Shown: positions 1,926-23,654 of the stretch, in pieces | How positions within the stretch are numbered: the stretch's first letter is position 1 | How the letters are laid out: each line of letters opens with the position of its first letter | From: a bacterium | GTDB taxonomy: Bacteria; Patescibacteriota; Microgenomatia; Levybacterales; UBA12049 | Assembly: GCA_021777565.1 (NCBI GenBank) | Contig: JAJYDJ010000003.1 | Span: 65,001-129,000, forward strand | Reading direction: 5' to 3' | Length of the DNA stretch: 64,000 nucleotides | Made by a program: the position numbers and the translations under genes | The notes under the pieces: generated by a model | What the model was told of the DNA's origin: nothing | Database searches by the model: none | What the model saw: only the letters and a program-made list of their open reading frames with translations

Positions 1926-1929
1926 ATTC

Positions 1930-2226: not shown

Positions 2227-2275
2227 AAATATTATCTTAAATACAAAAGGTTGTCAATAAACAAATATTGCATGA

Positions 2276-2515
2276 ATGCCCTATGGAAATATGATATTAT
2301 ATAAGCATATGGATGCGAGAGAATCTATCGGAACAGCTCTTCGGTTAGCGCGAAAAAAAAGAAAATTAACACAGTTTAAACTTTCACAGGCTGCAGGCAT
2401 AAATGCGAACTACTATGCCCAGATCGAACGAGGAGAAGTAAATGTCTCTGCCAAAATATTACAGATGATCATTGAGGTACTCAAAGTGAAGTCTTCTGAT
2501 ATTTTGCCTTACTGA
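2276..2515 (+). CDS. XRE-family helix-turn-helix transcriptional regulator (Cro/CI-like)
   Basis: LRLARKKRKLTQFKLSQAAGINANYYAQIERGE is a canonical XRE HTH. The gene is divergent from the integrase-side genes, across a 49-bp intergenic region containing the inverted repeat CAATAAACAAATATTG. Confidence 0.7.
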   Translation: MPYGNMILYKHMDARESIGTALRLARKKRKLTQFKLSQAAGINANYYAQIERGEVNVSAKILQMIIEVLKVKSSDILPY

Positions 2516-2553
2516 GATACACCCAATAATCACACCACATAGGCACCACATCC

Positions 2554-5388
2554 ATGTGGTGTAAAAACGATAGTTATAGATTCAAAAGAATGTATTCCAC
2601 ACAAAAAGGCAGATCCCCTACATATACATGTAAAATACTTTTTGTTATGATACATATGCTTTTATCTTCTGCCCTCAAAAGTATATATATGTCACCTATC
2701 CCTCACTGTATTATTAAAGTAGAATTGATTCAGAATACTCCTGTCTTCTCTTGTTATACTCTTCCTCACATCTCTTTTATTTCGTTTACTCCTATTTTTT
2801 ATCTCACACTTCATAGTGTAATTTTCATCTGTTCTGTGTTGTTATTTCTTCTCTGTCTTCGTGGTTTCATACAAATGAAAAGACAATTATCTGAAACACA
2901 TGTACTCCTTGAAATAATACCCCCTTCAGATACTAAGCAGACAACACTTACTACAGAACAATTTATGACAAATTTGCATAGTATCGGACAAAATAGATCA
3001 TGGTTTGATAAATTAGTTGGGAAGAAAAATATTTTTTCTCTTGAGCTTATTGCTACGAAAGAAAAAGGAATACGTTACGTGTTAGGTGTGCCAAAAGAAA
3101 TTGTTCCTATCATCAAAAGACAAGTACTCTCATTCTTAAAAGGAGCCACCATAACAGATACTGATGATTCCCTTCAGAGTATCAACAAACCTACCCATGG
3201 GATGATACGAGAACTTACGTTTCAGAGTCATTATGTATACTCTTTGCAAGAGCAATCATCACTTTCTCAGTATGATCCAATTGCATATATGACAGGGCAC
3301 ATGACAAGGCTTGGAGAGCATGAGACAATACTTCTACAAATAGTTATTACCCCAGTTACAAAGAGTTCTCACTGGTCAATATATACCTTCATTCAAAAAA
3401 CTATTCATAGAATTGAGCTTGGAGAAGACGTATCTGAAAACATAAAGAGTCATCATTCACTCTCTGCCACTATCCTTATGACTCTGCTCCTCTCTGTACC
3501 ATTTATACTCTTCGCACCTTATACGATCATTTCTCAGATTCTCCGTCCTACGAAAGATGGTAACTTTTTTCCCCTATGGCTATATACAGGCGAGAAGAAA
3601 AATCCTATGGACAGACTTACTCCTGAGAAACAGGAAATACAAAGAGATATCGCTCACAAATTGCAAAAAGAACTTTTTGAAACAACAATAAGAATTTACA
3701 GTTCCCACGAAGACCGACAAGGACAAAAGGAACGAATGCAAGGCATTCTGTCATCCTTTCAACCACTTCATACTCACTTGCAAAGGTTACATACAAAGTT
3801 TTCAATCGATGCCACGCAGTGGATTCAAGAATTCTTCCTCATGCATAGAATACTTGCGTTCAAGGGTAATCCTATTCTTTCAGTTTCAGAACTCGCAAAT
3901 CTGTATCACTTTCCATATACGCCAATCACACATACAGAAGATTTAGTGCAAAGCAAAAATCAAGAACTTCCTGTACCACTTTCTCTCAAAAATAGTACTG
4001 ACCTTGCTATTACTTTTGCTACGAATTCCTATGGGGGAATACCAACATCAATTGGACAAGATGCAAACCAAAGAAGAAAGCACACATATATTATTGGGGG
4101 TACTGGTACTGGAAAGACAACGCTTCTTTATACAATGATTATGCAAGATATTATAGCAGGACATGGAATCAATGTGACCGATCCACATGGTGATCTTATA
4201 CAGAAGATCTTGCAAACCATACCAGAAAATCGACAAGATGATGTTGTTCTTTTTGACCCTGACGATACTGAACATCCCTGTGGTTTTAATATTTTAGAGA
4301 TGCCCCAAGTACTTTCCAAGGAAGAAATGGAAAAGTATAAGGACCAACTCTGTGGTATCTTGATTGCTACTTTTCAAAAACTATTTCCTTCACGAGTAAA
4401 CGCCTATCGTATGGAACATATTTTGCGACAGGCGATTTTGACTGTACTTGAGACAGAAAGTCCAACACTTTTTACCATACAGAAGCTACTTACGGATTAC
4501 AAATATAGAAAGAGTGTTGTTGAACAACTCACTGATCCTATTTTAATTAATTTCTGGAAAAAAGAATTCGCTTCAATGGGATCCATGCAGAGAGCAGATG
4601 CTACTTCACCAATCACAACACGCCTCGGTGAATTCTTTGCGTCACATATGGCACGAAACATCCTACTCCAAAAACATACTACTATTGATTTCACGGATAT
4701 TATGAATAATAAAAAGATATTACTTTGTGATCTTTCGAAAGGGAAAATTACTGAAAGCATGAGCTCTTTCTTTGGTGCATTGATTACCGCGCAAATCGAA
4801 ATTACTGCACAACAGAGAGCACGACTACAAGAAAAGGATCGTGTAGATTTCTATGTGTATATTGATGAATTCCAAAATTTTGCCACACCAAGCTTTGCGC
4901 AAATGATGGGAGAATCACGAAAATATCGATTAAATACGATTCTTGCCCATCAGACGATCGCACAGATTGAAGATACAAATTTCATAGATATCGTTCTTGC
5001 AAATACTGGTACAGTTATTTCATTTCATACAGGGAGTCCGAGAGATGAGAGATATCTCCTACCATTCTTCGTACCAGAAGTGCTACCAGGACAGTTGAAT
5101 TCACTGCCACCCTATCACTTTTACATAAAAATCTCCAACAGCACCCCAGCTACCGTCTTTACTGGACAAACCGAGATTCTTATTTACCCTGAGAATCAAG
5201 AAAGAGCAAACAGTATCAGAGAACTTTCAAGAAACAAGTACACAAAGCAGAAATCAGAGATAGAAAGAGAAATAGTAACATTGCTCGAAGATAATGTTTC
5301 AGAAAAGAATACTGCTGATGCACAAGATCAGCTACAAAAAGCAAAAGAGTATCACTTAAAAGATGGAGGTTCTCATGAAAAGAAGTAA
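2554..5388 (+). CDS. type IV secretion coupling-protein-like ATPase (VirD4/TraG/TraD family); start uncertain
   Basis: Walker A is YIIGGTGTGKTT. Walker B is FYVYIDEFQNF. Also present are DPHGD and FDPDD...HPCGFNILE, as in TraG/TraD coupling proteins. There are N-terminal hydrophobic segments. An alternative start lies at ATG 2875 (MKRQLSE...). Confidence 0.7.
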   Translation: MWCKNDSYRFKRMYSTQKGRSPTYTCKILFVMIHMLLSSALKSIYMSPIPHCIIKVELIQNTPVFSCYTLPHISFISFTPIFYLTLHSVIFICSVLLFLLCLRGFIQMKRQLSETHVLLEIIPPSDTKQTTLTTEQFMTNLHSIGQNRSWFDKLVGKKNIFSLELIATKEKGIRYVLGVPKEIVPIIKRQVLSFLKGATITDTDDSLQSINKPTHGMIRELTFQSHYVYSLQEQSSLSQYDPIAYMTGHMTRLGEHETILLQIVITPVTKSSHWSIYTFIQKTIHRIELGEDVSENIKSHHSLSATILMTLLLSVPFILFAPYTIISQILRPTKDGNFFPLWLYTGEKKNPMDRLTPEKQEIQRDIAHKLQKELFETTIRIYSSHEDRQGQKERMQGILSSFQPLHTHLQRLHTKFSIDATQWIQEFFLMHRILAFKGNPILSVSELANLYHFPYTPITHTEDLVQSKNQELPVPLSLKNSTDLAITFATNSYGGIPTSIGQDANQRRKHTYIIGGTGTGKTTLLYTMIMQDIIAGHGINVTDPHGDLIQKILQTIPENRQDDVVLFDPDDTEHPCGFNILEMPQVLSKEEMEKYKDQLCGILIATFQKLFPSRVNAYRMEHILRQAILTVLETESPTLFTIQKLLTDYKYRKSVVEQLTDPILINFWKKEFASMGSMQRADATSPITTRLGEFFASHMARNILLQKHTTIDFTDIMNNKKILLCDLSKGKITESMSSFFGALITAQIEITAQQRARLQEKDRVDFYVYIDEFQNFATPSFAQMMGESRKYRLNTILAHQTIAQIEDTNFIDIVLANTGTVISFHTGSPRDERYLLPFFVPEVLPGQLNSLPPYHFYIKISNSTPATVFTGQTEILIYPENQERANSIRELSRNKYTKQKSEIEREIVTLLEDNVSEKNTADAQDQLQKAKEYHLKDGGSHEKK

Positions 5389-6148
5389 TGTATACATACA
5401 TAACGTTACCCCAGAACAACAGAAAATACTTTGTTGGCTAGCACTATTTACTATACTCACAAAAAAACATATGCAGAAATTGCTCAGACATAAAGATCAT
5501 AAATGGGTATCTGTCTGCATATCCAGACTACAAGCAGATGGATATGTGAAGGAAGTGCCCTTCACATTTGGAAGAACGAAAATTTTTGCATTATCAACCA
5601 AAGGAATGCTACTAGTAAAACGTATAAACACAACAGATACACAGCACAAGCAAATTGCTAAAAATATCTCATTTGCACAGATTGATCGTTTCTTGTGTAT
5701 TGCAGACGTATATGTACAACTCAATGAAAATAGTAAAGATACACTTTCATTTATCGCTAAGGCAAATCTCTCACGCGAAAGTAAAATAATAACACCGGAT
5801 GCATATCTAACATATACAGAAAGTACTCGAATAAAGACATATTTCCTTGAATTAGATAGAGAAACACAAAGCATGAATCCTATGGAAAAGAAACTTGAAA
5901 GATATTCACAGTACTTTTACTCAAAACAATGGAAAAGAATAACGCCAGACCACTTTCCAGCTGTTTGTATCATATGTTTCACACAAGAAAGAAAAAGGAA
6001 TTTGATGAATTTAGCAGAAGACCTATTTAATACGTCTCACTTCGCTCCTATTGTGTTTAAATTTACTACGCTAGATGAAATAAACAATGGTACACAAAAA
6101 GATATCTGCCTTGTTCCGTTCGAAAAAAAATTATATCCTATCCTATAG
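5363..6148 (+). CDS. hypothetical protein, possibly winged-helix / replication-relaxation-like
   Basis: 261-aa ORF that overlaps the end of the coupling-protein gene, suggesting an operon. The N-terminal region looks like wHTH. It has the size and position of the replication-relaxation family proteins of Gram-positive conjugative elements, but the family assignment is tentative. Confidence 0.4.
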   Translation: MEVLMKRSNVYIHNVTPEQQKILCWLALFTILTKKHMQKLLRHKDHKWVSVCISRLQADGYVKEVPFTFGRTKIFALSTKGMLLVKRINTTDTQHKQIAKNISFAQIDRFLCIADVYVQLNENSKDTLSFIAKANLSRESKIITPDAYLTYTESTRIKTYFLELDRETQSMNPMEKKLERYSQYFYSKQWKRITPDHFPAVCIICFTQERKRNLMNLAEDLFNTSHFAPIVFKFTTLDEINNGTQKDICLVPFEKKLYPIL

Positions 6149-6249
6149 GTAAATATACATCTGGATGTTAGATGTGCCAGTTTTGTTTTAATAATATTTA
6201 ACTATAATCTCAGTATAAAGTGGCGATAAGAATATATGTAGGTCAAAAA

Positions 6250-6278
6250 CTGACAACAATACACTTTTAGTGTATAAT
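6250..6278 (+). promoter_or_regulatory. sigma70-like promoter for the cargo operon (CTGACA-17 nt-TATAAT)
   Basis: The -35 element CTGACA is at 6250-6255. A 17-nt spacer contains the palindrome ACACTTTTAGTGT. The -10 element TATAAT is at 6273-6278. A second TATAAT lies near 6320. Confidence 0.45.
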
Positions 6279-6364
6279 ACCTTTTCAAGAACAAAGATCT
6301 ACCTAGAAACTCAGCTGGGAGTATAATTGAGATGACAATTTAGATATACGTTCTTAATAAATAT

Positions 6365-6988
6365 ATGTATACAATTACAGGCACGGCAGGCAATAACTGG
6401 CTTGAATATTGCAAATTAGTACTAGAGTACGGGTCAGACTTTCATGATGAGGGAGAGAAGATCAAAGAACTCCTTGATGTATTCATTCTTTTTGATAATT
6501 TCGATCCTAATGACTCTATTTTCGTTAAATACGGCAATCCTCATACAATTGACTTGTATAAACAGAAAATGATCTCATTGGAGATCATTCCTGAGCTCAA
6601 TACTACCTATGGCAAAAGATTATATGCACAGCAAGGCTTTGATCAGATTAAGTGGCTTACTGATAGGCTAAAAAGGAAACCAGAGACAAAATCAGCAACA
6701 ATCTCTCTTTTACTTCCTGATGACCCTGGACCACGTATTCCATGTTTAACGACTATTGACTGTAAAGTGCGTGGTGGAAAACTGCACATGACCGTATTCT
6801 TCAGATCCCAAAATGTAGCACGCTCCTATGCAAACTTCATTAGCGTTCACTACTTACACGAGAAGATTGCAATTGATTCTGGACATCCACTAGGGCAAAT
6901 GAAGTTTATTGTCTCTTCAGCCCATATTTATGAAAGGGACATAGAACCTGTAAAGAAGATCTTGGAAGAGACCAGTGAGTTAAGATAA
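6365..6988 (+). CDS. thymidylate synthase-fold protein (ThyA / dNMP hydroxymethylase family), minimal 207-aa version
   Basis: IPCLTTIDCKVRGGKLHMTVFFRSQNVARSYANFISVHYLHEKIA aligns to the ThyA active-site block [40 protein letters not shown]. The nucleophilic Cys is present. GQMKFIVSSAHIYERD aligns to GDFVWTGGDTHLYSNH. Confidence 0.65.
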   Translation: MYTITGTAGNNWLEYCKLVLEYGSDFHDEGEKIKELLDVFILFDNFDPNDSIFVKYGNPHTIDLYKQKMISLEIIPELNTTYGKRLYAQQGFDQIKWLTDRLKRKPETKSATISLLLPDDPGPRIPCLTTIDCKVRGGKLHMTVFFRSQNVARSYANFISVHYLHEKIAIDSGHPLGQMKFIVSSAHIYERDIEPVKKILEETSELR

Positions 6989-7003
6989 TACCAGATACTT
7001 ATA

Positions 7004-7591
7004 TCATACATCTGCATTTTTATATCTATCATCAGCTTTCATTTCTTTACGAATTAATCCTCGTATAAGTTCCGTCTTACTTTTTTTGTGAATGAAGGCA
7101 GACCACTCAATGTATCTATCTTCTTGAGAGCTCAGAACTAAATTAAATCTTGTCTTTTTACCAGTTTTATTTTCTTCTAAGAACTTTTCAATAATTTCAG
7201 GTAACTCATTTGTGTTTGTGTACACTTCATCATTTAAAAGCTCTGATATAACTCCATTCGTTGTAAGTGAAAACATATCCCTATTTGTAGATTGATGCAA
7301 ATGGAGAACTGGTTTGCCTTTCTGAAGTGCAATTGTCATCTGATGTCCTGCAGTAAGACCCTTTACCGTTCCTTCAACAATAGCTACATCAGCGTTAATA
7401 ATAGAGGTAATAATATCTGCGTAGAGTTTATCGAAATCAACTTTATTCTTAGTTTCTTGGTTTTGTAGGGCCTCATCAATCCAATCTCTAGTCAACTCAT
7501 GTCCGAGACTCACGATTATTTCACAAATTTGTTTATAAATAGGGAAGTATTCAGGAAGTTTTGATGTTGAGGTGATAAAAACAACTTTCAT
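7004..7591 (-). CDS. nucleoside 2-deoxyribosyltransferase / DNPH1(Rcl)-like protein
   Basis: ADVAIVEGTVKGLTAGHQMTIALQKGKPVLHLHQ parallels the DNPH1 segment ADVVVAEVTQPSLGVGYELGRAVALGKPILCLFR. A small Rossmann-like fold begins at MKVVFITS. Confidence 0.5.
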   Translation of the reverse strand: MKVVFITSTSKLPEYFPIYKQICEIIVSLGHELTRDWIDEALQNQETKNKVDFDKLYADIITSIINADVAIVEGTVKGLTAGHQMTIALQKGKPVLHLHQSTNRDMFSLTTNGVISELLNDEVYTNTNELPEIIEKFLEENKTGKKTRFNLVLSSQEDRYIEWSAFIHKKSKTELIRGLIRKEMKADDRYKNADV

Positions 7592-7632
7592 ATATAAGAG
7601 CTATACTTAACTTCATTTATTTATGTAAAGTA

Positions 7633-7657
7633 TAACATCATTATACATGATGTTATG
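7633..7657. promoter_or_regulatory. perfect palindrome (10-bp arms, 5-bp spacer) in the divergent promoter region; candidate operator
   Basis: ATAACATCAT-TATAC-ATGATGTTAT read directly. It lies in the AT-rich 330-bp intergenic region between the divergent genes 7004-7591 (-) and 7922-8962 (+). Confidence 0.3.
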
Positions 7658-7921
7658 TAATCCTTGTACCCCCATTACAAAGATACTGTTTAGATTTTGA
7701 ATTTCCTCTTGACACAGAATGAAATATGTTATACACATGAATATGTACATATATACACACTTGTGCATTGATGTACTAGTGAATGATGCGTGCATTATTA
7801 GTTTGCCAAAAGTGTAGAAGAGAATATAAAGTTTCATCTAAGGATGAGTCTAAGTTTTCAGTATCACTACTAAAAGTGAGCGATGAGCTTTTAGTACATT
7901 CTGAGGTTTGTCCAAGGTTAT

Positions 7922-8962
7922 ATGGAAAAAGGAAAACTAAATCGAAATAAAAATATGAATAAAATACTAAAAGTAGGCATTATAGGCATGGGTGAGCAGA
8001 TGACTGACAACCTGCTTCCTAGCATATTACTCAATAACTCTGTCATCATAGATAGTGTATGTGATATTGATAAAGAGAAATTGCATATAGCAGAATCAAA
8101 ATATAACGTAGTTGGATGCCAGTCTTATCAAGAAATGCTTACTACTAGAGAACTCGATTGTATTGTAGTGGCATCAACACCCCAAGTTCACGAAGCTGTT
8201 ATACAGTTATCAATTGACAAAGGTATCCCTATCTTTGTCGAGAAACCTCCATTCGTTGATATATCTAGCCTAACTCATATCATGAGTGACCCTAAAGCAA
8301 AAGATTTAATAAGTGGGGTTGGCATTAATTTTAGTTACACTGACAGTTTATTAATTCTCAAGGAATTACTGAATGAAAAAAAGTTTGGCAATATTTTGTA
8401 TTGGAATATTAATCATCTTGCTAATAAACCAACGGAGGCGCTGTGGGGGCTAAATAGCGTACCTCAATCATTTTTGCTCGCGCAAGCGATTCACCCTTTG
8501 GCATTTATATTAAGCTTTGGTGATAATTATAAAATCAAAAGTATTGATTATAGCCAGTTTGCTGATCAACTTCTGTTAAATTTAAATTTAGATATAAATC
8601 GTAATGGAAAGTCCTTTGTTGCAAATATTACATCAGGAACTTGTTCCCCGCACTTTGAGTGGAATATGGAGATTATTACTGACCAAGGGAAAATATTACG
8701 AATCAATTCACTGTGGGAATTGGAGTTGCTAGATGCTGGGAAAAAAACAGATCTCGTTAAAAATACTAAAAGATGGAAAGACGTATGGCATCCAAGTCCT
8801 GTTGGAAATGGTCTAAAAAGGACAGGTTATTATCATGAGCTTTCATCTTTTTTTGATAGCGTAAGGGAAAATAAGACATTTTATCCTAACCTTTCTAATA
8901 TGTTTGCGGTATATACACTCATTGATCAAATAAGTAAAAACATAACTGTAAAATATGTATAA
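7922..8962 (+). CDS. Gfo/Idh/MocA-family NAD(P)-dependent sugar oxidoreductase
   Basis: The N-terminal Rossmann motif is KVGIIGMGE. The EKP motif is present (FVEKPP). An alternative start lies at M12 (MNKILKVG). Confidence 0.7.
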   Translation: MEKGKLNRNKNMNKILKVGIIGMGEQMTDNLLPSILLNNSVIIDSVCDIDKEKLHIAESKYNVVGCQSYQEMLTTRELDCIVVASTPQVHEAVIQLSIDKGIPIFVEKPPFVDISSLTHIMSDPKAKDLISGVGINFSYTDSLLILKELLNEKKFGNILYWNINHLANKPTEALWGLNSVPQSFLLAQAIHPLAFILSFGDNYKIKSIDYSQFADQLLLNLNLDINRNGKSFVANITSGTCSPHFEWNMEIITDQGKILRINSLWELELLDAGKKTDLVKNTKRWKDVWHPSPVGNGLKRTGYYHELSSFFDSVRENKTFYPNLSNMFAVYTLIDQISKNITVKYV

Positions 8963-10091
8963 ACTTGAAAATAAATTCGTAAGTATTAACGCTGAAGATA
9001 TTCAATCTGTGACTGATTCTCTGAGGCAAAAACAGCTTGCTGGGACAGCAGATGTTGTAAAAACCTATGAGCAAAAACTGTCTGAATATTTTGCAGCCAA
9101 ATATGCCCATGCATGCAATTCTGGTACTGCTGGGATTGAGCTTATTCTTAGAGCTCTTGGCGTAGACGAGAACAGTGAAGTTTTATTGCCACCGACGGGT
9201 CCTGTGATGTGTGTATTGCCGATAATAGCAATTGGAGCAAAACCAGTTTTTGTCGATGTAGATTCATCATCTACTTTTGGTATTGATATTGAGGATTTGC
9301 AAAGAAAAATAACAAAAAAAACAAAAGCTCTTCTTGTAGTCCCCATGTGGGGATACCCAATCGAGATGAGTGAAATCAGAAAGATATGCCAAGAAAAACG
9401 AATTATTCTTATTGAAGACGCCTCACACTGTCACGGCAGTAAACTAGGAGAGCACTATGTTGGGACTCTTGCTGATCTTTCTATTTTTAGTACTCAAGAA
9501 AGAAAACTTGTCACGACAGGAGAAGGAGGATTTGTACTTACCAACACGCCTGAGATCAGTCAAGTAGTACAAGAAATGAGGAACTTCGGTAGGGCAACAA
9601 CAAATGTTGCATATTTTGATAGAAAAGTAGATGATTTTGGCGTACGTTTTGGCCTTAATTTTAGGCTTAGTGCAACAAATGCAGCTCTAGGGATATCCCA
9701 GCTAGAGAAATTGGATAATAAGATTAAACAAAGAACTCGAAATGCAGAATACATACGAGAGTCCTTGAATAATTGTAAAGACATTGAAGAAATACCAATT
9801 CTCTCTCATGCAATACCTAATTATTACTCAATAGTTTTTAAGATAAAAAATATGACAAACAACGCTGTGTTTGGGAAATATCTAGACGAGCATGGAATTA
9901 TATCTGACACATATAGATTTAACTATATGCCGCTATATCAAATGCCACTCTTTAGTTCATATGTTTCTTCATGTCCCAATGCAGAATCTGTAACAAAATC
10001 AATCTTTACGTTGCCGACACATGAAGGACTAATCCAGAAAGATTTAGATCATATTATTTCAACTGTAAAAGATTTTTATGCAAATACTTAA
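8955..10091 (+). CDS. DegT/DnrJ/EryC1/StrS-family PLP-dependent sugar aminotransferase
   Basis: Family-typical N-terminus. The Lys-containing segment IEDASHCHGSKLG matches the DAAHA.G.K PLP-binding-Lys region. It overlaps its upstream neighbour by 8 nt. Confidence 0.85.
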   Translation: MYKLENKFVSINAEDIQSVTDSLRQKQLAGTADVVKTYEQKLSEYFAAKYAHACNSGTAGIELILRALGVDENSEVLLPPTGPVMCVLPIIAIGAKPVFVDVDSSSTFGIDIEDLQRKITKKTKALLVVPMWGYPIEMSEIRKICQEKRIILIEDASHCHGSKLGEHYVGTLADLSIFSTQERKLVTTGEGGFVLTNTPEISQVVQEMRNFGRATTNVAYFDRKVDDFGVRFGLNFRLSATNAALGISQLEKLDNKIKQRTRNAEYIRESLNNCKDIEEIPILSHAIPNYYSIVFKIKNMTNNAVFGKYLDEHGIISDTYRFNYMPLYQMPLFSSYVSSCPNAESVTKSIFTLPTHEGLIQKDLDHIISTVKDFYANT

Positions 10092-10581
10092 TAACTTGTT
10101 ATTGCCTGAGAAGTTCTGCAAACATGAGAGGCATATTACTGTTTCAGGCTACATCTTTAACAAAAGTCTAACAAAGGTAGTTTTACTTCATCACAAGAAA
10201 CTACACAAATGGATGGCTGCTGGTGGACATATTGAGGTAAATGAGTTACCGCATGAGGCTATTTCACGAGAGATTAAAGAAGAGGTAGGAGTTGAAGCGG
10301 ATTTTATTGATTCTATGATTGCTGCTAAGTTCGATTCTGTAAATGAGTGGAAGATGCCTTCGCCATATTTTGCCATGATGCAAGTAATCCCTGAAACAAA
10401 AACAAATCCCGAGCATTTACATTACGACTATAGCTATATACTCGTTGCACGCACAAAGAAATTGAATCCTAAACCAGATGAGTCACAAAAAGTTCAATGG
10501 TTCTCTTTACCTGAAGTGCTAAAACTGGAAACATTCCCTATTGTGCCAAAAATTTGTAAAGCGATACTTTCAAAAAAATAA
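10078..10581 (+). CDS. NUDIX hydrolase
   Basis: The Nudix box GGHIEVNELPHEAISREIKEEVGVEA matches GX5EX7REUXEEXGU. Confidence 0.8.
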   Translation: MQILNNLLLPEKFCKHERHITVSGYIFNKSLTKVVLLHHKKLHKWMAAGGHIEVNELPHEAISREIKEEVGVEADFIDSMIAAKFDSVNEWKMPSPYFAMMQVIPETKTNPEHLHYDYSYILVARTKKLNPKPDESQKVQWFSLPEVLKLETFPIVPKICKAILSKK

Positions 10582-10582
10582 T

Positions 10583-12187
10583 ATGAATAACTTACCTCTT
10601 AATTATTCTGATATGTATATAGGGATTGTCTTGACTGCGACTTCAATAGTTTTGGCTCGAGGCATTATGAATCTCTATAAGATAATTGATAATATCTCCT
10701 GGCTTAAAAAGACACATTATTCATCTGACGATTATAAAATCGTAAAGGATTTTCCACCAATCATTATCTGCATACCCATGTTACGGGAACAAAGGACAGC
10801 AAAATCAACAATCGAGTATTTCTCTAGTCTAGAGTATGCTAAAAAAGATTATCAACTTGTTATTGTAACCACTGAGAAAGAGCGGTATGACAAGGATGTT
10901 TACAAAAAAAGATTACCTCAGATATATGCAGACTTAAAACAGGGCATTTCTTTAGCAAGCTTTGTAGATAGGTATCTTGGCGTATTTTCTGAAGCAGAAC
11001 TCGTACATCTATTCCAAGCAAAAGATAAGGGAATTTCCTTGAAAGAAATAACTGAAAAATTTAATCAAATTCCCAGTACTGAAGATATTGCTCAAGAAGA
11101 AGCTAAAAGAATTAATAAAAAAGTGGGATTCGAGCTAATAAAAGTACTCCACTACCCCAAGAATCATAGAACTGTTAGTGAACAGATTAATTATGCGATT
11201 GATTATTATAGAGACATAAAAAGATACGAGAGGGGATATTTTGCATTATATAATGCCGATTCACGTCCAAGTTTAACAATTTTATATGATGCGCTTGTTA
11301 CAAAGGCTAACTTTGAAAGGAAATATAACTATTCTCCTCAAGTCATGCAACAATCTTCACTGTTTACATTAAACTATGGTATGTTTAAGAACAATCTCAA
11401 TGGATTCTTGTTGAAAGCATCAGCATTATTCCAAACAAAATGGACGCTTACCCATGAGTTTTCTATCCTCCGAAGCCAATCAGATACAGCAATGAAAATA
11501 AAGAAGGTAACAAATCCACTTGCGAAAATTTGGTATTCACGTCTAGGTATTTGCATTACGCATGGATTGTTCTTGAGTATGAAACTTATTAAAACACAAT
11601 ATATGCCTACCGACACAGTAACTGAAGACCTGCCATTGGGTTACTATTTATCCTGTCTTAATGAACCAATCGTACCAATACCATCAATTGAGAATTCAGA
11701 ATCCCCAGTTACATTAGGAAGTCTCTTTAATCAAAAAAAAGTTTGGTTCTGGCCATACTTACAATATGAGCAATGCAAAAGGAGAGTATTGAAACACTCT
11801 CTCTATCAATCAACGATATCAGTATATCTCATTACCTTTCAAGGCCAATTAAGAGGATTAACATGGCTACTACAGTCACCAATACTAATACTTTCTTTTT
11901 TGGGTCTTGTCATGTTTAATCACTGGCAAGTAATAGAATTCTCTCTCCTTGCGATAATAATATATTGGTTCATACCTATTTATATTGTTTTGAAACAACT
12001 CAACAGTCTAGAAAATGAGTCAGGCAAAGGTCTCACCACACTGAGTTCTAGAGATTATATCTATACACCCCTCTCTGGGCTTCTCGTTCTTGCTTCCCAC
12101 TCCTATGGCCCTATACTTACTTGCATTGATTACCTCAAAGAGATTCTGTTTGGAAAGGTATACGTTAAGCAAAAAACAGAAAGATAA
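10583..12187 (+). CDS. polytopic membrane protein with GT-A (family-2-like) glycosyltransferase domain
   Basis: It has an N-terminal TM segment. PPIIICIPMLREQ...YQLVIVT resembles the GT2 N-terminal beta-strand/DXD region. The C-terminal third has multiple TM helices. The start is moved to ATG 10583, just after the NUDIX stop. Confidence 0.45.
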   Translation: MNNLPLNYSDMYIGIVLTATSIVLARGIMNLYKIIDNISWLKKTHYSSDDYKIVKDFPPIIICIPMLREQRTAKSTIEYFSSLEYAKKDYQLVIVTTEKERYDKDVYKKRLPQIYADLKQGISLASFVDRYLGVFSEAELVHLFQAKDKGISLKEITEKFNQIPSTEDIAQEEAKRINKKVGFELIKVLHYPKNHRTVSEQINYAIDYYRDIKRYERGYFALYNADSRPSLTILYDALVTKANFERKYNYSPQVMQQSSLFTLNYGMFKNNLNGFLLKASALFQTKWTLTHEFSILRSQSDTAMKIKKVTNPLAKIWYSRLGICITHGLFLSMKLIKTQYMPTDTVTEDLPLGYYLSCLNEPIVPIPSIENSESPVTLGSLFNQKKVWFWPYLQYEQCKRRVLKHSLYQSTISVYLITFQGQLRGLTWLLQSPILILSFLGLVMFNHWQVIEFSLLAIIIYWFIPIYIVLKQLNSLENESGKGLTTLSSRDYIYTPLSGLLVLASHSYGPILTCIDYLKEILFGKVYVKQKTER

Positions 12188-12192
12188 AACAT

Positions 12193-12897
12193 ATGGCTGA
12201 AATACATATCGCAACTATTGATGGGACTAGCTTTGCAGGGAAAACAACTCTACTTGAGGGCATCTCTCATGCAAATTCAAACATACAAAGGATTGAGGAA
12301 TACGATGCGTATGCTGGCGGCTTTATAAATTTCCCTGATTTTCCCCCAACAGATGAACAAGCAGCAAGAGATGGGATAGATTGTATTGTTCGATTAGACC
12401 AAATGCGTACTCCTGATATCAGAAGGAAAAGCGCAGATGGAGCCATTGTTGTTACTGATCGTTCTGTTCTCTCGTGCATTCTTTTTCAAGACACTGTCAG
12501 AAGGTTGATGCCACATATCCCAAATGCATACCAATACTGCTTAGAAGCATTTTTAAGGGCCCATGATGCAGGAGAAGTTATTTTCCCAAACTCACTCATA
12601 TATTTGGAGGCTGTCAATGTTGAAACATTTAATAAACGTGTTGGCAGAAGAGGACGTACTCCGATAGACTTTCTATCAAGCGAGGAGGCTTATTACTTTA
12701 CTAGAGAATGGTTTTCAAAACTCATTTCTCAGCATTATGCTACAGATAATAGTATCTTATTACAATCTGAAGATGGTAGACTAGATGAACTGGTTGCAAA
12801 TGCAATGGCATTTCTCCAAAACTCTAGTTACCAAGGAGATACTCGTCTCATGTTGGAGACATTGCTTGCGAATTGCAACAGATTGGAGCTAAGTTAA
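12193..12897 (+). CDS. P-loop nucleoside/nucleotide kinase (deoxynucleoside kinase / dNMP kinase-like)
   Basis: Walker A is IDGTSFAGKTT (compare dNK IEGNIGSGKTT). The DRS motif is present (VVTDRSVLS). Confidence 0.6.
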   Translation: MAEIHIATIDGTSFAGKTTLLEGISHANSNIQRIEEYDAYAGGFINFPDFPPTDEQAARDGIDCIVRLDQMRTPDIRRKSADGAIVVTDRSVLSCILFQDTVRRLMPHIPNAYQYCLEAFLRAHDAGEVIFPNSLIYLEAVNVETFNKRVGRRGRTPIDFLSSEEAYYFTREWFSKLISQHYATDNSILLQSEDGRLDELVANAMAFLQNSSYQGDTRLMLETLLANCNRLELS

Positions 12898-13529
12898 TGA
12901 TTACACCAAAAATCATCTTTATTGACTGGAATAAAACACTCTCATACTCATTGTTTTGGGAGCAATTGCAGACAGAAGAACATAGATATCATCCTTATGG
13001 TGATCAGATCATCCATTCGCTTTTCAATATTGACTTGAATCTTATAAACGACTGGATGCTTGGAAAGCATACAACAGAAGATGTATGTAATTTTATATCT
13101 GAACATGTAAAACTTCCAGCAAATATAATTCAACAGGAGCTTATTGTAAGTTGTCAGCATATGAAGTTTATTGACAAAGTGATACCTAGATTACTCACAA
13201 AAATACGCAAGAAAGGGATACGAGTAGTGATTGCGACAGACAATATGGATACGTTCCGTCGATTTACTATGCCAGCTCTAAAGTTAGAAGAACATTTTGA
13301 CGATTTTCTCATATCTTCCGAGTTAGGTGTGTTCAAATACACGTTTACTGATGATAAAATACCATTCTTTGATACCTATCTACAAGCCTATAACGCAACA
13401 TATCAAGATGTAGCTCTACTCGATGACAGTCCTGAGCAAACAGGAACATACGAAAAGAAAGGATTTGTTATTCGAGATGTACAGGATAAGAGTGATCTTA
13501 TAAGGTATTTAAAAGAATATGCTGCTTAA
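12897..13529 (+). CDS. HAD-superfamily hydrolase (phosphatase/nucleotidase-like)
   Basis: Motif I-like IIFIDWNKTL. Later conserved acidic motifs are VVIATDN and ALLDDSPEQ. The start ATG 12897 overlaps the upstream stop (TAATG). Confidence 0.5.
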   Translation: MITPKIIFIDWNKTLSYSLFWEQLQTEEHRYHPYGDQIIHSLFNIDLNLINDWMLGKHTTEDVCNFISEHVKLPANIIQQELIVSCQHMKFIDKVIPRLLTKIRKKGIRVVIATDNMDTFRRFTMPALKLEEHFDDFLISSELGVFKYTFTDDKIPFFDTYLQAYNATYQDVALLDDSPEQTGTYEKKGFVIRDVQDKSDLIRYLKEYAA

Positions 13530-14226
13530 TTTGATTTTCCACCATATTTCAACAACGCCATTATCTGATGATCATTGGGCTATTACACCAGAAAAATATT
13601 GGTCAGTTATTGATATGATAAATCAATTAATAAAAACCCAAAAAGTTCCATATGAAGATTATCGAATATATTTTGACGATGGATACAGTTCGTTCTATGA
13701 TTTTATTTACAAAGATATTCCTGAGAAAGAATTATCTCGATATACATTGGCTATTGTGACTGACGATGTAGATACTCCAAACCATATGACTCTCCAGCAG
13801 TTAAAAGAGATTCATGAGACAGGTATACACATGTCCTCTCATGGAGTTTCACATGCTTCTATAGCTATCTATATTGATAATGTTATACAAACTACTCCCC
13901 TGGGGGGCATCTATCAAAACTGTCCTTGGGGGCAAGGAAAAGCATTAAGCGAGAGAGAGGTTTTATATCAACTCCAGGAATCCAAAAAATTCCTTGAAAA
14001 ATATTTTGGAATAATTGATGAATTTGTATTTCCCTTTGGGATTTATAACAATCAGGTAATCGCACTGAATGATAAATACGGTTTATATAGATACATGTCC
14101 ACATGTGATGAAGTTCTTGACCATGGACAGTTTCTAAGACCACGATACCTAATATATAACACAAAAAGTATGGAGCAAATTAAAGACGAATTAATGAACA
14201 TTAAAAATCAATATGAACTACTGTAA
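13519..14226 (+). CDS. polysaccharide deacetylase (CE4/NodB domain)
   Basis: The FDDGY metal-binding motif is present, together with MTLQQLKEIHETGIHMSSHGVSH (HxxH-type motif). Confidence 0.7.
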   Translation: MLLNLIFHHISTTPLSDDHWAITPEKYWSVIDMINQLIKTQKVPYEDYRIYFDDGYSSFYDFIYKDIPEKELSRYTLAIVTDDVDTPNHMTLQQLKEIHETGIHMSSHGVSHASIAIYIDNVIQTTPLGGIYQNCPWGQGKALSEREVLYQLQESKKFLEKYFGIIDEFVFPFGIYNNQVIALNDKYGLYRYMSTCDEVLDHGQFLRPRYLIYNTKSMEQIKDELMNIKNQYELL

Positions 14227-14244
14227 TAAGATTAAATAACTTGT

Positions 14245-14907
14245 ATGGATGAATACTTAATGAAACTCAAGACTAAGGTAGATGTAATGTTTGCCAATGA
14301 AAAAAGTGGGCATGATATTGCACACTTAGAGAGAGTCATGAGACTAGCATTACACATTCAAAAAGAAGAAGGTGGGGATAGACTTATTATCGGCATTTCT
14401 GCATATTTACATGATATACATAGACTTCTTGAAAATAGAGAGCATAAATTTTTCTCTCCAAAAATGTCACTACCAATAGTAAAAGATCTATTAAAATCCG
14501 TAGACTTCCCTGACAGAGAGATCAGTAAAGTTCTCCATTGTATTGAGTTTCACGAGGAGTATGATTTCACCCCACAAGGAAAAACAGTATCAGATCTAGA
14601 GACCCTCATCTTGCAGGATGCAGATAATCTCGATGCAATGGGGGCAATTGGTATTGCAAGAGCATTTATGTACGCAGGACATCATGGTGCGGTTATGTGG
14701 AATCCAGAAGTACCTCTAAATCCTGAAGCTTTATTTGAAGATGCTAAATCATTAGATGACGCATCCACTATACATCATTTCTATCATAATATACTCAAAC
14801 TGTGTGACAACATGAACACCTCGACAGCCAAATCTATTGCAAAAGATAGGCAGGAATTTACGCAAGAGTACATAGAAAGATTTTTTACTGAGTGGGATTT
14901 CATTTAA
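14245..14907 (+). CDS. HD-domain phosphohydrolase (YfbR-like 5'-deoxynucleotidase family candidate)
   Basis: HDIAHLERV...LHDIHR...LQDADNLD gives the H...HD...D metal-ligand pattern of HD hydrolases. Confidence 0.7.
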   Translation: MDEYLMKLKTKVDVMFANEKSGHDIAHLERVMRLALHIQKEEGGDRLIIGISAYLHDIHRLLENREHKFFSPKMSLPIVKDLLKSVDFPDREISKVLHCIEFHEEYDFTPQGKTVSDLETLILQDADNLDAMGAIGIARAFMYAGHHGAVMWNPEVPLNPEALFEDAKSLDDASTIHHFYHNILKLCDNMNTSTAKSIAKDRQEFTQEYIERFFTEWDFI

Positions 14908-14974
14908 TTCCACATTTTGAGACATAGTCCAGGTATAAGTAATTTACTTACCTGTAAGAAATAAATCTAAACGG

Positions 14975-15982
14975 ATGAATAAGCTTTATCATAAAAACAC
15001 ACTTGGTTATCATGTTTTATCTCACGATAATAATTATCCACTTAATATACTAAAACTATCAAATCCAACAGGCCTTACATCTCTATCAATCGTTATACTT
15101 TACTTTGAAGCAGTACAGACAATTAACTTAGTTCTTGAACATTTACTAAAATCCGTTAATAAAATAAAAAAACAAGTTGATAAAACTTGGGATGTTGAAG
15201 TCATCTTGATTGACGATGGATCTACAACTTATACTGCCAAGGAAACAATACACCCAGACTATTTATCTCAAATTAAAGTAGTGAGACACGCTGTAAATAG
15301 GGGTCGATGTATAGCAAGAAATACAGGTATCAGATCGGCAAGAAAAGAGTTACTACTCTTCTTAGATGCAGATATACTGGTAAATGAAACAATTTTATTG
15401 AATCATATGAGGATACATAACGATATTCGGAAGTATGATGATAATGCTATATCCGTTTCGCTATTCAATTTTGTACAAAAAGATATACTTGATAGAACAA
15501 AAGACCTCTCAGTACTTTTTAAAAAAACCAACGACTTTAGAGATGATTGCACATACCAAGAAAAGTGGATAGGATGTGAGGAAGATAAGGAGTTTGCCAA
15601 TCAAAGATTTAGGATTATGAAAGATACACATTATTTACAGAAATGGCCTTTATCAGGCTCTGTTGGACCTTGGATAATGACAAATATGGTTTTGGGGGGA
15701 GCGTTTATGGTAGATCGAAAACTAGCACAACTTGTAAATGGCTGTGATTATCTTTTTGTTGAATATGGATTTGAGGAAACTTCTCTTGCAACGAAACTAA
15801 TTGTTTATTGTGGTTCTTATATAATCCCTGAAACTTCGGCATACCCTATTCACATAATATGTGAGCAAGGAGAGAAAAACAGGCCTGAGAAAAACACTCT
15901 ATTTAGAAAAGCCCATGACCTATATTTTAATAAGTTTTTAAAGAGGAAAATCAATGAAAATGTAATCTTTGATACAGATTGA
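14975..15982 (+). CDS. family 2 glycosyltransferase (GT-A)
   Basis: VILIDDGSTT...RHAVNRGRCIARNTGIRSA...LLFLDADI gives the typical GT2 DXD and catalytic region. Confidence 0.7.
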   Translation: MNKLYHKNTLGYHVLSHDNNYPLNILKLSNPTGLTSLSIVILYFEAVQTINLVLEHLLKSVNKIKKQVDKTWDVEVILIDDGSTTYTAKETIHPDYLSQIKVVRHAVNRGRCIARNTGIRSARKELLLFLDADILVNETILLNHMRIHNDIRKYDDNAISVSLFNFVQKDILDRTKDLSVLFKKTNDFRDDCTYQEKWIGCEEDKEFANQRFRIMKDTHYLQKWPLSGSVGPWIMTNMVLGGAFMVDRKLAQLVNGCDYLFVEYGFEETSLATKLIVYCGSYIIPETSAYPIHIICEQGEKNRPEKNTLFRKAHDLYFNKFLKRKINENVIFDTD

Positions 15983-16069
15983 GATATTGCTAAATTTCCA
16001 CAGACTACGTATAATCTTCGTGAGTTACGTTTATCCTGCCACTGCCCTCCAAACGTCTCTACTTTAACT

Positions 16070-16327
16070 ATGCAAGGACAAGTTATTCAGTTTCCTGGTC
16101 TTGATGCCCTTTTGTGGGGAATCGTTGCTACACTCCAATATTATTCGTTGCCAGCAATGGCACTTTCAATTGCAGCTATAGGCATTGCGTTAGTTATGAG
16201 TGGAGATGATATTGATCGCAAATCAAGACTAAAGCATTGGATCTTTAATATCCTGTTTGGTGGACTTTTTGTTTTTGGTGCTACTACGCTCGCCAATATT
16301 CTCAAGGGATTTTTGAGTAGTCATTAA
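16070..16327 (+). CDS. small two-helix membrane protein, VirB2/TrbC pilin-like candidate
   Basis: 85 aa with two hydrophobic helices separated by a short charged loop. It is the first gene of the T4SS-like block. Confidence 0.35.
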   Translation: MQGQVIQFPGLDALLWGIVATLQYYSLPAMALSIAAIGIALVMSGDDIDRKSRLKHWIFNILFGGLFVFGATTLANILKGFLSSH

Positions 16328-16365
16328 ATCTTAATAATCTCTGTTTATGAAAAATATTTCCAATA

Positions 16366-17646
16366 ATGAAACTTATTCTTGTATTTGCAATTATTTCTGT
16401 TATTCTTTTTAGTGTTCCGTCACCTATTTTCGCAGATACTCCCACCCCTACTCCTATACCCACACAGATACCTCAAGAAGCGACTAATGCACTAGGGAAC
16501 TCCCTCAACGGCTTTTTTTCAGGATTTGATTGGATTGCCGATGGCCTTATCTTCAACACACCTGATGTCACGCGTGATACTATCACACTGAGAGATGGTA
16601 CATCACTTGGAGGAATTAGTCAGTACAAAAATATATTTTATGATATAGCCATTCCAATTTTTGCCATTATTTTGGCAGCAAGTGCATTGCTGCATATTGC
16701 CAATGATGACAAGTATCAACTTGTGAATTTCCTGAAACGACTTGCCTTTGTGGCTATATTATTCATCCTTGCTCCCTATATACTTTCCTACAGTATCCAA
16801 TTCATTAACTTGCTTGATACACAAATACAACAACTACAAGTACTCAATTTAGTTACCTTCCTTACAGAATATGTACAAAGTGGTGATTTTAATAGTTTAC
16901 TTAAATTCAGTAGTAGCCCCCTATTATTTTTCTCCCCCACAGTCCTCTTACAGATGCTTATTATCATCATTTCTATGGGATTTCTCCTCCTAGGGTTTCT
17001 CTATATTGTTTTCCAGGCAGTAACACGCTTCGTAGCATTACTGATCCTTACTGTCTTAATGCCTATTGCTATTCCTTTTGCCCTTTCAGAGAAAACACAA
17101 AATATAACAAACAATTATTTCCGTACGTGGTTTACCTTTCTTATTCAACAGCCTGCATTCGTATTAGGATTTGCGCTCATCACTACTATTTTTGGTAACC
17201 TCTTGAAAGCACATTCATCAAGCATTGGGACACTTTTCCTCTATGCAGGATCACTCATCTTTTTAGGCGGTGTGAATGTCTTCATTGCGCGTATCTTCGG
17301 TAGTGGCTGGGAACTTATGACGATAAACAGTCAAAGTATGTTTGCCGCTGGAATGATTACAGGATTTGGTATGTCATCACTCAACAAATTTAAAGATGGA
17401 GCACTTACAGGAAAGGAAACTGGCATACGAAACCAAGTTGGTGCAACATTTGGACGAACCATGGGCTTTCTTATCATGGACAGAAAGAACTACTCAGAAA
17501 ATAGTGGAATTCCTCACCATGAACAATCTTCTCGAGGTGAGACATTTATAAATAGGCATGGCTATTTTGCTCACAAATCAGGGCAAAGACCAAATATAAC
17601 TTGGGAAAAGCCAAAAGCAAAGAAGGGGACAAATGAAGAGCGTTAG
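16366..17646 (+). CDS. VirB6/TrbL-like polytopic membrane protein
   Basis: A signal peptide is followed by a Thr-Pro-rich linker. There are at least 5 TM helices, and the protein is 426 aa. This is the usual architecture and position of VirB6-family proteins upstream of VirB4. Confidence 0.5.
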   Translation: MKLILVFAIISVILFSVPSPIFADTPTPTPIPTQIPQEATNALGNSLNGFFSGFDWIADGLIFNTPDVTRDTITLRDGTSLGGISQYKNIFYDIAIPIFAIILAASALLHIANDDKYQLVNFLKRLAFVAILFILAPYILSYSIQFINLLDTQIQQLQVLNLVTFLTEYVQSGDFNSLLKFSSSPLLFFSPTVLLQMLIIIISMGFLLLGFLYIVFQAVTRFVALLILTVLMPIAIPFALSEKTQNITNNYFRTWFTFLIQQPAFVLGFALITTIFGNLLKAHSSSIGTLFLYAGSLIFLGGVNVFIARIFGSGWELMTINSQSMFAAGMITGFGMSSLNKFKDGALTGKETGIRNQVGATFGRTMGFLIMDRKNYSENSGIPHHEQSSRGETFINRHGYFAHKSGQRPNITWEKPKAKKGTNEER

Positions 17647-22483: not shown

Positions 22484-22539
22484 TTATATGGCACAAAATA
22501 CTTGCGGCTTTTTTTCCAAAACTAGTATATAATCTTTTT

Positions 22540-23652: not shown

Positions 23653-23654
23653 TT

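Follow-up and report, generated by a model that had tools for sequence, protein, structure and literature searches.

A probable amino-sugar glycoconjugate operon next to a ThyA/DNPH1-like gene pair on a predicted integrative conjugative element

The stretch of DNA analyzed here (contig JAJYDJ010000003.1, positions 65,001 to 129,000; the whole stretch of 64 kb is called the window) carries a set of metabolic genes at 6365-15982, which is flanked on both sides by genes of a conjugative element. These cargo genes probably represent two functionally separate units on one integrative conjugative element (ICE), namely an operon for an amino-sugar glycoconjugate (7922-15982) and a gene pair coding for a short ThyA-fold enzyme and a DNPH1-like protein (6365-7591). 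An earlier note on the same DNA had instead proposed that nucleotide-handling and sugar-handling enzymes cooperate there in DNA hypermodification, and had mentioned two adjacent modules for nucleotide metabolism and for surface-glycan or nucleotide-sugar synthesis as an alternative; it is this alternative that agrees with the results. The open reading frames (ORFs) are all present as it described them, and most of its domain assignments were recovered with Pfam or NCBIfam, except that the kinase and the DNPH1-like protein were recognized only with family profiles. The note had counted three glycosyltransferases (GTs), but there are only two such genes, both for family 2 enzymes (GT2), one polytopic (10583-12187) and one soluble (14975-15982). 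The cargo consists of the following genes, where dNK stands for deoxynucleoside kinase:

6365-6988, + strand: short ThyA-fold enzyme of 207 amino acids (Pfam Thymidylat_synt)
7004-7591, - strand: DNPH1/Rcl-like protein of 195 amino acids, nucleoside 2-deoxyribosyltransferase fold (profile search against the PDB)
7922-8962, + strand: Gfo/Idh/MocA-type NAD-dependent sugar (or inositol) dehydrogenase, first gene of the operon (Pfam GFO_IDH_MocA)
8955-10091, + strand: DegT/DnrJ/EryC1-type pyridoxal phosphate-dependent aminotransferase, overlapping the dehydrogenase gene by 8 nt (Pfam DegT, 273 bits)
10078-10581, + strand: NUDIX hydrolase (Pfam)
10583-12187, + strand: polytopic GT2 with cellulose/hyaluronan-synthase-like fold (alternative TTG start at 10541)
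12193-12897, + strand: P-loop kinase of a small dNK-like family (family profile)
12897-13529, + strand: HAD-superfamily phosphatase (Pfam, NCBIfam; alternative TTG start at 12873)
13519-14226, + strand: CE4 N-deacetylase (Pfam Polysacc_deac_1, 41 bits)
14245-14907, + strand: YedJ/PRK10119-like HD phosphohydrolase, inside the operon (Pfam/NCBIfam)
14975-15982, + strand: soluble GT-A (GT2) glycosyltransferase, last cargo gene before VirB2 (Pfam Glycos_transf_2, 58 bits)

Conservation of the glycan cassette

The operon is compact, with distances of -8, -14, 1, 5, -1, -11, 18, and 67 nt between its successive genes. The ThyA-like gene has an upstream region of 216 nt to itself, the DNPH1-like gene is oriented convergently to it, which is set apart from the operon by a divergent region of 330 nt. 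Both genes form transcription units of their own, and the tight packing previously noted for the entire cargo applies to 7922-15982, but not to them.

Homologues of the window proteins in related loci were counted by tblastn (E<1e-4); loci were regarded as close if their membrane GT2 showed at least 32% identity to that of the window, and as eligible if they offered enough flanking sequence (5 kb or more for the counts of ThyA, its partner, and HD). In the genomes bearing the kinase gene, it is adjoined by genes for the membrane GT2 (36-38% identity over the full length), a GT2, the HAD phosphatase, and the CE4 deacetylase. Membrane GT2, kinase, and HAD phosphatase recur together in Woesebacteria, Dojkabacteria, and unclassified metagenome-assembled genomes (MAGs), where some loci add a second glycosyltransferase and a deacetylase, and a metagenome scan yielded 80 further cassette loci. 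In all 14 close eligible loci the membrane GT2 is followed by the kinase, and 11 of 12 contain the HAD phosphatase; the CE4 deacetylase is present in 3 of 12 and a soluble GT2 of the window type in 4 of 14, the others carrying a different glycosyltransferase or deacetylase. No homologues of ThyA, its partner, or the window HD protein were found in any of the 7 close and 24 distant eligible loci (31 in total), the HD genes seen near the cassettes in L019 and L023 being unrelated. The arrangement is not due to chance, as its core recurs in dozens of independent loci.

The order of the core genes and their overlapping stop and start codons are conserved at GC contents from 27% to 73% and down to protein identities of approximately 25-30%, while the remaining composition varies: a UDP-sugar 6-dehydrogenase (UGDH) or the GFO/DegT/NUDIX genes, a CE4 or a PIG-L deacetylase (the latter, for example, in L023 and L041), and a GT2 or a GT4 enzyme as second glycosyltransferase. 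This variability, together with ThyA, its partner, and the HD protein being additions specific to this element, would be expected if there were no coherent pathway at all and the element had gathered a patchwork of salvage and cell-wall genes one by one. We regard such a patchwork as quite improbable, given the conservation of order and codon overlaps over these distances, the linkage to the kinase in 14/14 close loci, and the recurrence of the same eight functions with a non-orthologous deacetylase, which is the signature of a pathway. The conserved order across GC contents, the overlapping codons, and the exchange of non-orthologous deacetylases therefore indicate that the genes form a pathway, to which the NUDIX hydrolase, the kinase, and the HAD phosphatase should also be assigned because of their conserved linkage to the membrane GT2. 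The six genes that had been grouped together as nucleotide-handling are thereby divided, these three belonging to the glycan module.

A view on the upstream part of the operon shows that its first three genes also travel together. The dehydrogenase is related over its full length to a "probable dehydrogenase" in the PDB (3m2t, E=1.7e-63), and the best PDB matches of the aminotransferase are inosose and keto-sugar aminotransferases (130-138 bits). In L034 (GC 30%), GFO, DegT, and NUDIX genes are located directly upstream of the membrane GT2 gene in the order of the window (54, 58, and 46% identity, respectively). The NUDIX hydrolase of L027 likewise shows 46% identity, and more distant versions (26-27%) are encoded in L041, L042, L043, and L079; in all of these loci the NUDIX gene immediately precedes that of the membrane GT2. 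In a lineage with a GC content of 73% (L041, L042, L079), the order is GFO-DegT-NUDIX-PIG-L-GT2 (membrane)-GT2-...-kinase-HAD, and the GFO-DegT pair is kept together there as well as in L034; other loci contain UGDH in place of the three genes.

The same overlapping pair of a Gfo/Idh/MocA dehydrogenase and a DegT aminotransferase is known from WbpB/WbpE, GnnA/GnnB, RifL/RifK(/RifM/RifN), and NtdC/NtdA/NtdB. The RifL/K/M/N route to kanosamine, in which an oxidoreductase and an aminotransferase cooperate with a phosphatase and a kinase, additionally parallels the window cassette in the presence of a phosphatase and a kinase (PMC8788734). However, all matches of the window proteins to named amino-sugar equivalogs are far below the NCBIfam cut-offs, the window kinase shows the dNK fold and not that of the ROK kinases, a NUDIX hydrolase is a conserved third member of the module here, and the substrate could be an inosose. 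The former description as a WbpB/WbpE-type pair is correct with respect to adjacency and the 8-nt overlap, but does not extend to any threshold for a named equivalog.

Enzymes of the operon and the proposed pathway

The polytopic GT2 is a membrane-embedded enzyme with the fold of cellulose and hyaluronan synthases, in which interface and transmembrane helices are joined to a GT-A domain; one membrane helix lies at the N-terminus and about four lie at the C-terminus. All Pfam and NCBIfam models stay below their cut-offs with this protein (Pfam Glyco_trans_2_3 gives 19.5 bits, cut-off 27), and its single sequence has no match among the PDB sequences. In the comparison table of the enzyme, the highest value is that for PcManGT (24.9), and BcsA (23.5) and the hyaluronan synthases of Chlorella virus (21.6) and Xenopus (HAS1, 19.3) match almost as well, over 364-372 residues including the membrane helices. 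The conserved family motifs YNADSRP, NEDLPFGY, and QKxxW are of the D/DxD-, ED-, and Q..W-type and resemble those of BcsA, class I hyaluronan synthases, NodC, PgaC, and the minimal archaeal PcManGT, except that the Arg of QxxRW is absent. Further likenesses concern the gene context, as NodC/NodB and PgaC/PgaB also combine a glycosyltransferase with an N-deacetylase, and many exopolysaccharide (EPS) loci contain UDP-sugar dehydrogenase or amino-sugar genes upstream. In contrast to these synthase-type enzymes, to which it is only 9-13% identical, the GT domain of the window protein contains a helical insertion of approximately 80 amino acids; the deacetylase is predicted to be cytoplasmic, and an obligate link to a dNK-fold kinase and a HAD phosphatase, as shown by the cassette, is not known from the characterized synthase systems. 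Membership in the poly-N-acetylglucosamine (PgaC/PgaB) or the Nod-factor (NodC/NodB) systems was considered and rejected, the scores lying far below the cut-offs. A limited literature search yielded no description of a synthase-fold GT2 combined with a nucleoside-kinase-fold enzyme.

The kinase belongs to a small family that was overlooked by simpler searches: a word-index protein search returned only the kinase itself and one fragment, its single sequence has no match in the PDB, and the Pfam dNK model stays below its cut-off (17.4 bits, cut-off 27). An exhaustive search of 1.8 billion proteins gave 57 representatives at E<1e-10, and the profile of this family matches dNK-family chains in the PDB (E 5e-6 to 1e-3) and also NDUFA10. 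The family shows complete or almost complete conservation of residues G16, K17, E36, D89-R90-S91, and R149/R153, and the protein carries the marks of dNKs, i.e., the P-loop, the (D/E)RS motif, an Arg-rich lid, and a Glu base approximately 19 residues past the P-loop Lys, the spacing usual in dNK structures. A genome scan, whose pattern was taken from the alignment subset with the common SFSGKTTL sequence, located the kinase in Dojkabacteria, Woesebacteria, unclassified MAGs, and a nanoarchaeon. An APH/choline-kinase-type kinase is added to the cassette in L023 (12544-13329), L024 (12937-14288), and a locus of JGI 3300072015; it was rejected as a replacement of the P-loop kinase, since these loci carry both. 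Two of the loci with an APH-type kinase also contain an AbiEii-like nucleotidyltransferase, and the two proteins may represent an AmgK/MurU-type salvage pair of sugar-1-kinase and nucleotidylyltransferase.

The HAD phosphatase contains IDWNKTLS as motif I, a DxN variant present in most members of its family. The CE4 deacetylase is predicted to be cytoplasmic, as it has neither a signal peptide nor a membrane segment. The soluble GT2 shows DDGS and DAD motifs, no signal peptide, and weak NCBIfam matches to EPS-type glycosyltransferases; orthologues with 31-41% identity are found in 20 cassette loci. In L020, the second glycosyltransferase is a GT4 enzyme with MshA, BshA, and GlcNAc-PG synthase as best NCBIfam matches.

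In the pathway proposed here, the dehydrogenase and the aminotransferase would convert a nucleotide-sugar (or cyclitol) to its amino derivative, and the soluble and the membrane GT2 would assemble and probably export a glycoconjugate. As judged from its family and its replacement by an unrelated deacetylase family, the cytoplasmic N-deacetylase may convert GlcNAc-type residues to free amines. By analogy, the kinase, the HAD phosphatase, and the NUDIX hydrolase may prepare, proofread, or recycle a phosphorylated acceptor or a nucleotide-linked precursor. Precedents for this last step are MshA/MshA2/MshB, as well as RifL/RifK/RifM/RifN in the synthesis of kanosamine (PMC8788734). The product would be membrane-associated or secreted and contain an amino sugar.

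Some of the same features may be read in favor of a small-molecule glycoside rather than a polymer, either mycothiol-, GPI- or GlcN-lipid-like or of the aminoglycoside or kanosamine type. The kinase would then phosphorylate the acceptor, a glycosyltransferase would add GlcNAc, the phosphate would be taken off by the HAD phosphatase, and deacetylation would expose the amine, with the membrane GT2 adding a further sugar or attaching the product to a lipid. A set of glycosyltransferase, phosphatase, N-deacetylase, and kinase fits the MshA/MshA2/MshB logic, and so do the best matches of the GT4 enzyme in L020 and the exchange of CE4 for PIG-L, the type of deacetylase acting on GlcNAc-PI and in mycothiol synthesis; the APH/choline-kinase-type kinases of L023, L024, and the JGI locus, the inosose aminotransferases as best PDB matches of DegT, and the analogy to kanosamine synthesis (PMC8788734) point in the same direction. 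We nevertheless consider the small glycoside unlikely, as the membrane GT2 matches BcsA and the hyaluronan synthases over a length that includes its membrane helices, the cassette lacks conserved tailoring genes of the acyl-, peptidyl- or ligase-type, and the matches to the named enzymes stay far below the family cut-offs.

The ThyA-like enzyme, its DNPH1-like partner and the question of DNA hypermodification

The short ThyA homologue is recognized by Pfam (49.3 bits, threshold 24.3), but remains below all NCBIfam equivalog cut-offs, the best match being the methanogen-type thymidylate synthase (TS) model TIGR03283 (85.8 versus 174.55, full-length alignment). In the PDB, it is nearer to TS than to MilA (40 versus 20 bits), with TS and dUMP hydroxymethylases being inseparable by sequence. 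The protein keeps the nucleophile Cys127, the uracil-type Asn157, the 2'-deoxy-type Ser148, and His187/Tyr189, but the canonical active-site set of TS is incomplete (E. coli numbering for the residues replaced): Asn150 takes the place of the folate-binding Asp169, and Lys109 and Ser110 those of Arg126' and Arg127'. The same pattern extends through the family of short ThyA proteins, where Cys146, Arg166, Ser167, Asn177, His207, and Tyr209 (E. coli numbering) are kept, Asn for Asp169 and Lys for Arg126' are invariant, and the change of Arg127' to Ser or Ala is nearly conserved. Asn at the respective position is indicative of a uracil and Ser of a 2'-deoxy substrate, and Lys at Arg126' is the state found in MilA and BcmA (PMC5175136). 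We therefore propose that the short ThyA acts on a uracil deoxynucleotide.

Its partner has no match in Pfam, but a profile built from it and three relatives matches Rcl/DNPH1 in the PDB (E=1e-5, residues 3-139 against 5-141 of 152). E73 aligns with the Glu that serves as nucleophile in DNPH1-type enzymes (PMC10603095). The invariant Asp59 is one position off the column of the acid Asp (D80 in the human enzyme), the Tyr position that reads the 2' group is occupied by Phe or Val, and the protein ends in a conserved extension of approximately 50 amino acids. A ribbon-helix-helix DNA-binding function guessed for this extension was not confirmed by Pfam or PDB profile searches, and a single-sequence AlphaFold2 model of the protein was unusable (pLDDT 38).

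ThyA relatives with 57-67% identity are located in chromosomal neighborhoods with genes for ArgRS, NDK, Ham1, guanylate kinase, and GTP cyclohydrolase II. In these loci (L004-L013), a DNPH1-like gene (48-57% identity) lies divergently upstream of ThyA and a CYTH-like gene downstream, the pair being found at 9283-11231 in L004, 3642-5573 in L008, and 9261-11216 in L012; the CYTH-like gene is followed by genes for P-loop kinases, NDK, or Ham1. None of the other window cargo genes occurs in 10 loci with the ThyA pair. We propose from these comparisons that in the second unit a short ThyA-fold enzyme is paired, as is typical of the lineage, with a DNPH1-like protein that binds nucleotides or acts as an N-glycosidase. 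An adjacent pair of ThyA-fold and DNPH1/MilB-fold proteins is likewise present in MilA/MilB and BcmA/BcmB, with the nucleophile Glu kept in the latter partner and with Lys at the Arg126' position of MilA and BcmA as in the window ThyA. The differences are that MilA has Asp and Ala at the positions of the uracil-type Asn and the deoxy-type Ser, that the window partner possesses an additional C-terminal domain, which is conserved, and no longer follows the consensus at the Tyr/Phe position, and that the neighbors of the pair are housekeeping nucleotide genes rather than antibiotic genes. With its non-canonical active site and DNPH1-like partner, this short protein of the minimal gene set of the candidate phyla radiation (CPR) bears a plain "thymidylate synthase" label that the MilA/MilB- and BcmA/BcmB-like pairing calls into question.

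Some observations on other short ThyA homologues may be added. In the Firmicutes Clostridium baratii and Acetatifactor, more distant homologues with 43% identity are instead translationally coupled to a protein of 480-500 amino acids with an FGE-sulfatase domain (8001-10069 in L015, 8001-10135 in L016 and L017), and in the latter two loci this pair lies downstream of a Pkinase-TPR/STAND protein. In L012, the ThyA and CYTH genes are followed by one for a protein of 503 amino acids (11237-12748) with a weak match to the Mom family (25 bits, just below the cut-off) and then by those for an AAA_17 kinase and Ham1, possibly a nucleotide- or DNA-modification context unrelated to the window cargo. 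Among the best 120 homologues of the short ThyA, the only one on a 953-kb contig carrying a nearly identical element is the element-borne copy, and the element may carry the sole short ThyA of that genome.

These findings bear directly on the headline of the earlier note. In that proposal, the ThyA homologue would make 5-hydroxymethyl-dUMP (or -dCMP), the kinase, NUDIX, HD, and HAD enzymes would reshape the dNTP pool, and the glycosyltransferases and the aminotransferase would decorate the base, the modified DNA then protecting the element. The parts list is indeed superficially similar to those of phage hypermodification systems (T4 gp42/gp1/gp56 plus glucosyltransferases, or systems derived from 5-hydroxymethyldeoxyuridine, 5-hmdU), which comprise a ThyA homologue, a P-loop kinase, pyrophosphatase- or phosphatase-type hydrolases, glycosyltransferases, and an aminotransferase. 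The atypical ThyA homologue with its sub-threshold TS scores and its replacements of Asp169 and Arg126/127, the dNK fold of the kinase, the restriction-modification (R-M) system on the element, and the weak Mom-like protein after the ThyA pair of L012 might also be taken as supportive. Against this, the kinase, HAD, NUDIX, deacetylase, and glycosyltransferase genes are conserved without ThyA (0/31) and ThyA occurs without them, the parts thus failing to co-occur outside this element, and the main glycosyltransferase is embedded in the membrane. No phage relatives emerged: IMG/VR scans with patterns for the ThyA family and the membrane GT2 returned none, INPHARED contained no match for the kinase and only generic TS (27-30% identity) for ThyA, the kinase does not match the 5-hmdU DNA kinase family in Pfam or phage genomes, and the PADLOC defense models gave nothing relevant. 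Asn157 argues against a cytosine substrate (PMC5175136), and the partner of ThyA is DNPH1-like with its nucleophile Glu kept. As DNPH1 and MilB hydrolyze hydroxymethyl-pyrimidine nucleotides (PMC10603095), an N-glycosidase of this type beside ThyA would be expected to destroy a modified dNMP instead of feeding it into DNA. DNA hypermodification is therefore extremely unlikely, and a parts list resembling that of phages, which invites over-interpretation, dissolves when gene neighborhoods are compared.

The upstream regions of the two units contain the following elements:

6250-6278, + strand: sigma-70-like promoter match CTGACA-17-TATAAT upstream of the ThyA-like gene
6259-6275: perfect inverted repeat ATACACT-TTT-AGTGTAT, overlapping the ThyA promoter match
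7753-7768: ATACACA-CT-TGTGCAT, an imperfect inverted repeat within the divergent region ahead of the operon, with half-sites arranged as at 6259-6275

The promoter match scores 11/12 and is the top one of the region 6000-16500, although the terminator and promoter scans overall were not above chance. The pattern ATACAC-N3-5-GTGYAT, which was derived post hoc from its two sites, occurs at these two sites only in the 64 kb (0.05 expected), and in the relatives comparable palindromes with TGTGTAT/ATACACA half-sites lie between ThyA and its partner. The shared repeat suggests a common regulator, possibly the DNPH1-like partner itself. Distinct from these repeats is a perfect 10-bp inverted repeat, ATAACATCAT-TATAC-ATGATGTTAT, at 7633-7660, approximately 40 nt before the DNPH1-like gene starts. 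An ORF of 74 amino acids at 7613-7837 has no family match and is missing from the genes called on the parent contig.

Several points weigh against the assignment of the cargo to two separate units and of the operon to a glycoconjugate. The shared inverted repeat hints at common regulation, so that some functional coupling of the units is conceivable, and it is only in this element that the HD gene lies inside the operon and the ThyA pair beside it. The Arg in the QxxRW motif of the processive synthases is absent from the membrane GT2 (QKxxW). To our knowledge, dNK-fold kinases, NUDIX hydrolases, and HAD phosphatases have no part in any characterized synthase-type polysaccharide system, so that the roles given to them are guesses.

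The conjugative element and its setting

Domain searches of the window proteins with Pfam/NCBIfam-type models show the genes of the conjugative element on both sides of the cargo:

411-1925, - strand: serine recombinase (domain search)
2554-5388: coupling protein (T4CP), part of the left arm at 411-6148
5363-6148: MobC-type relaxase, end of the left arm
16070-20603: VirB2, VirB6, and VirB4, right of the cargo
16070-26598, + strand: row of features right of the cargo
22540-24713: Dcm methylase and NgoFVII-type restriction enzyme, forming an R-M system

The genes of the right arm also include an M23 hydrolase. As judged from the joint presence of recombinase, relaxase, coupling protein, and a VirB4-type type IV secretion system (T4SS), the element is predicted to be an ICE, which agrees with the earlier description as a mobile element with an R-M system. 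Its GC content is 33-39%, compared to 40-46% in the sequence past approximately 28 kb. A nearly identical element is present in four samples, in one of them on the 953-kb contig, and a megablast search of the region against plasmids gave no match. Judged indirectly, from the contigs of relatives and the 953-kb parent contig, its host is probably a CPR (Patescibacteria-type) bacterium with a small genome.

The repertoire of VirB4, VirB6, VirB2-like pilin, and T4CP is that of the monoderm-type (MPF-FATA-like) T4SS of Patescibacteria as described in a survey (PMC12102498), and a cell-wall hydrolase and a MobC or Replic_Relax relaxase are likewise shared with these systems and with MobC ICEs. That survey found a relaxase near virB4 in only 15 cases, MOBC being the commonest class (PMC12102498). 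The element described here has all three of relaxase, T4CP, and serine recombinase, and its glycan cassette separates the relaxase gene from the pilin genes.

A second, divergent element, L056 (1-17880; ERZ773263 NODE-510), contains the cassette in the same slot between relaxase and pilin genes. Its T4CP and VirB4 are 34 and 30% identical to those of the window, and its genes follow the order T4CP, CHAP hydrolase, VirB4, VirB6/pilin, pilin; HxlR regulator; cassette; Replic_Relax relaxase, serine recombinase. The cassette itself consists of UGDH, membrane GT2, kinase, GT2, HAD, and CE4 in this order and lacks the ThyA pair, GFO/DegT, and HD. L053 is a close relative of L056. The co-occurrence of cluster and T4SS genes in related elements, raised in the earlier note as a point to check, is found in L056, but most other cassette loci have no T4SS genes within 10 kb.

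The cassette is widespread among the genomes of CPR bacteria and travels on ICEs. These bacteria (Patescibacteria) are attached to host cells in their way of life, and very little has been learned about their surface chemistry; a conserved mobile amino-sugar cassette, if correctly interpreted, would give access to the ways in which their surface is built and varied. The location of the cassette in elements with relaxase, coupling protein, and recombinase also bears on whether the type IV systems of CPR bacteria conjugate, and the two elements are of some interest in themselves in view of the 15 cases of a relaxase near virB4 (PMC12102498). A further-reaching speculation, to which we assign a low probability, is that membrane GT2, dNK-fold kinase, and HAD phosphatase (with optional GFO-DegT-NUDIX or UGDH) form the core of an undescribed glycoconjugate pathway of ultra-small bacteria with an obligatory nucleoside-kinase-like step, that one family of conjugative elements in CPR bacteria has this pathway built in as an accessory to transfer (e.g., a glycan for mating-pair or host contact), and that separately the short ThyA and its DNPH1-like partner form a hydroxymethyl-pyrimidine system of the MilA/MilB type.

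Finally, some details of the element may be recorded. VirB4 (17633-20603) is split into two overlapping ORFs of 269 and 729 amino acids, the former matching the N-terminal part of the ICE VirB4 model and the latter containing the ATPase; the split is not an assembly error, because it recurs in a second sample (L014). At its left edge, the element has a tRNA-Glu(CTC) gene (347-421) that directly adjoins the serine recombinase gene at the 3' end of the latter, and further left on the parent contig genes for RecT and a pentapeptide-repeat protein are located (L001, 269-3950).

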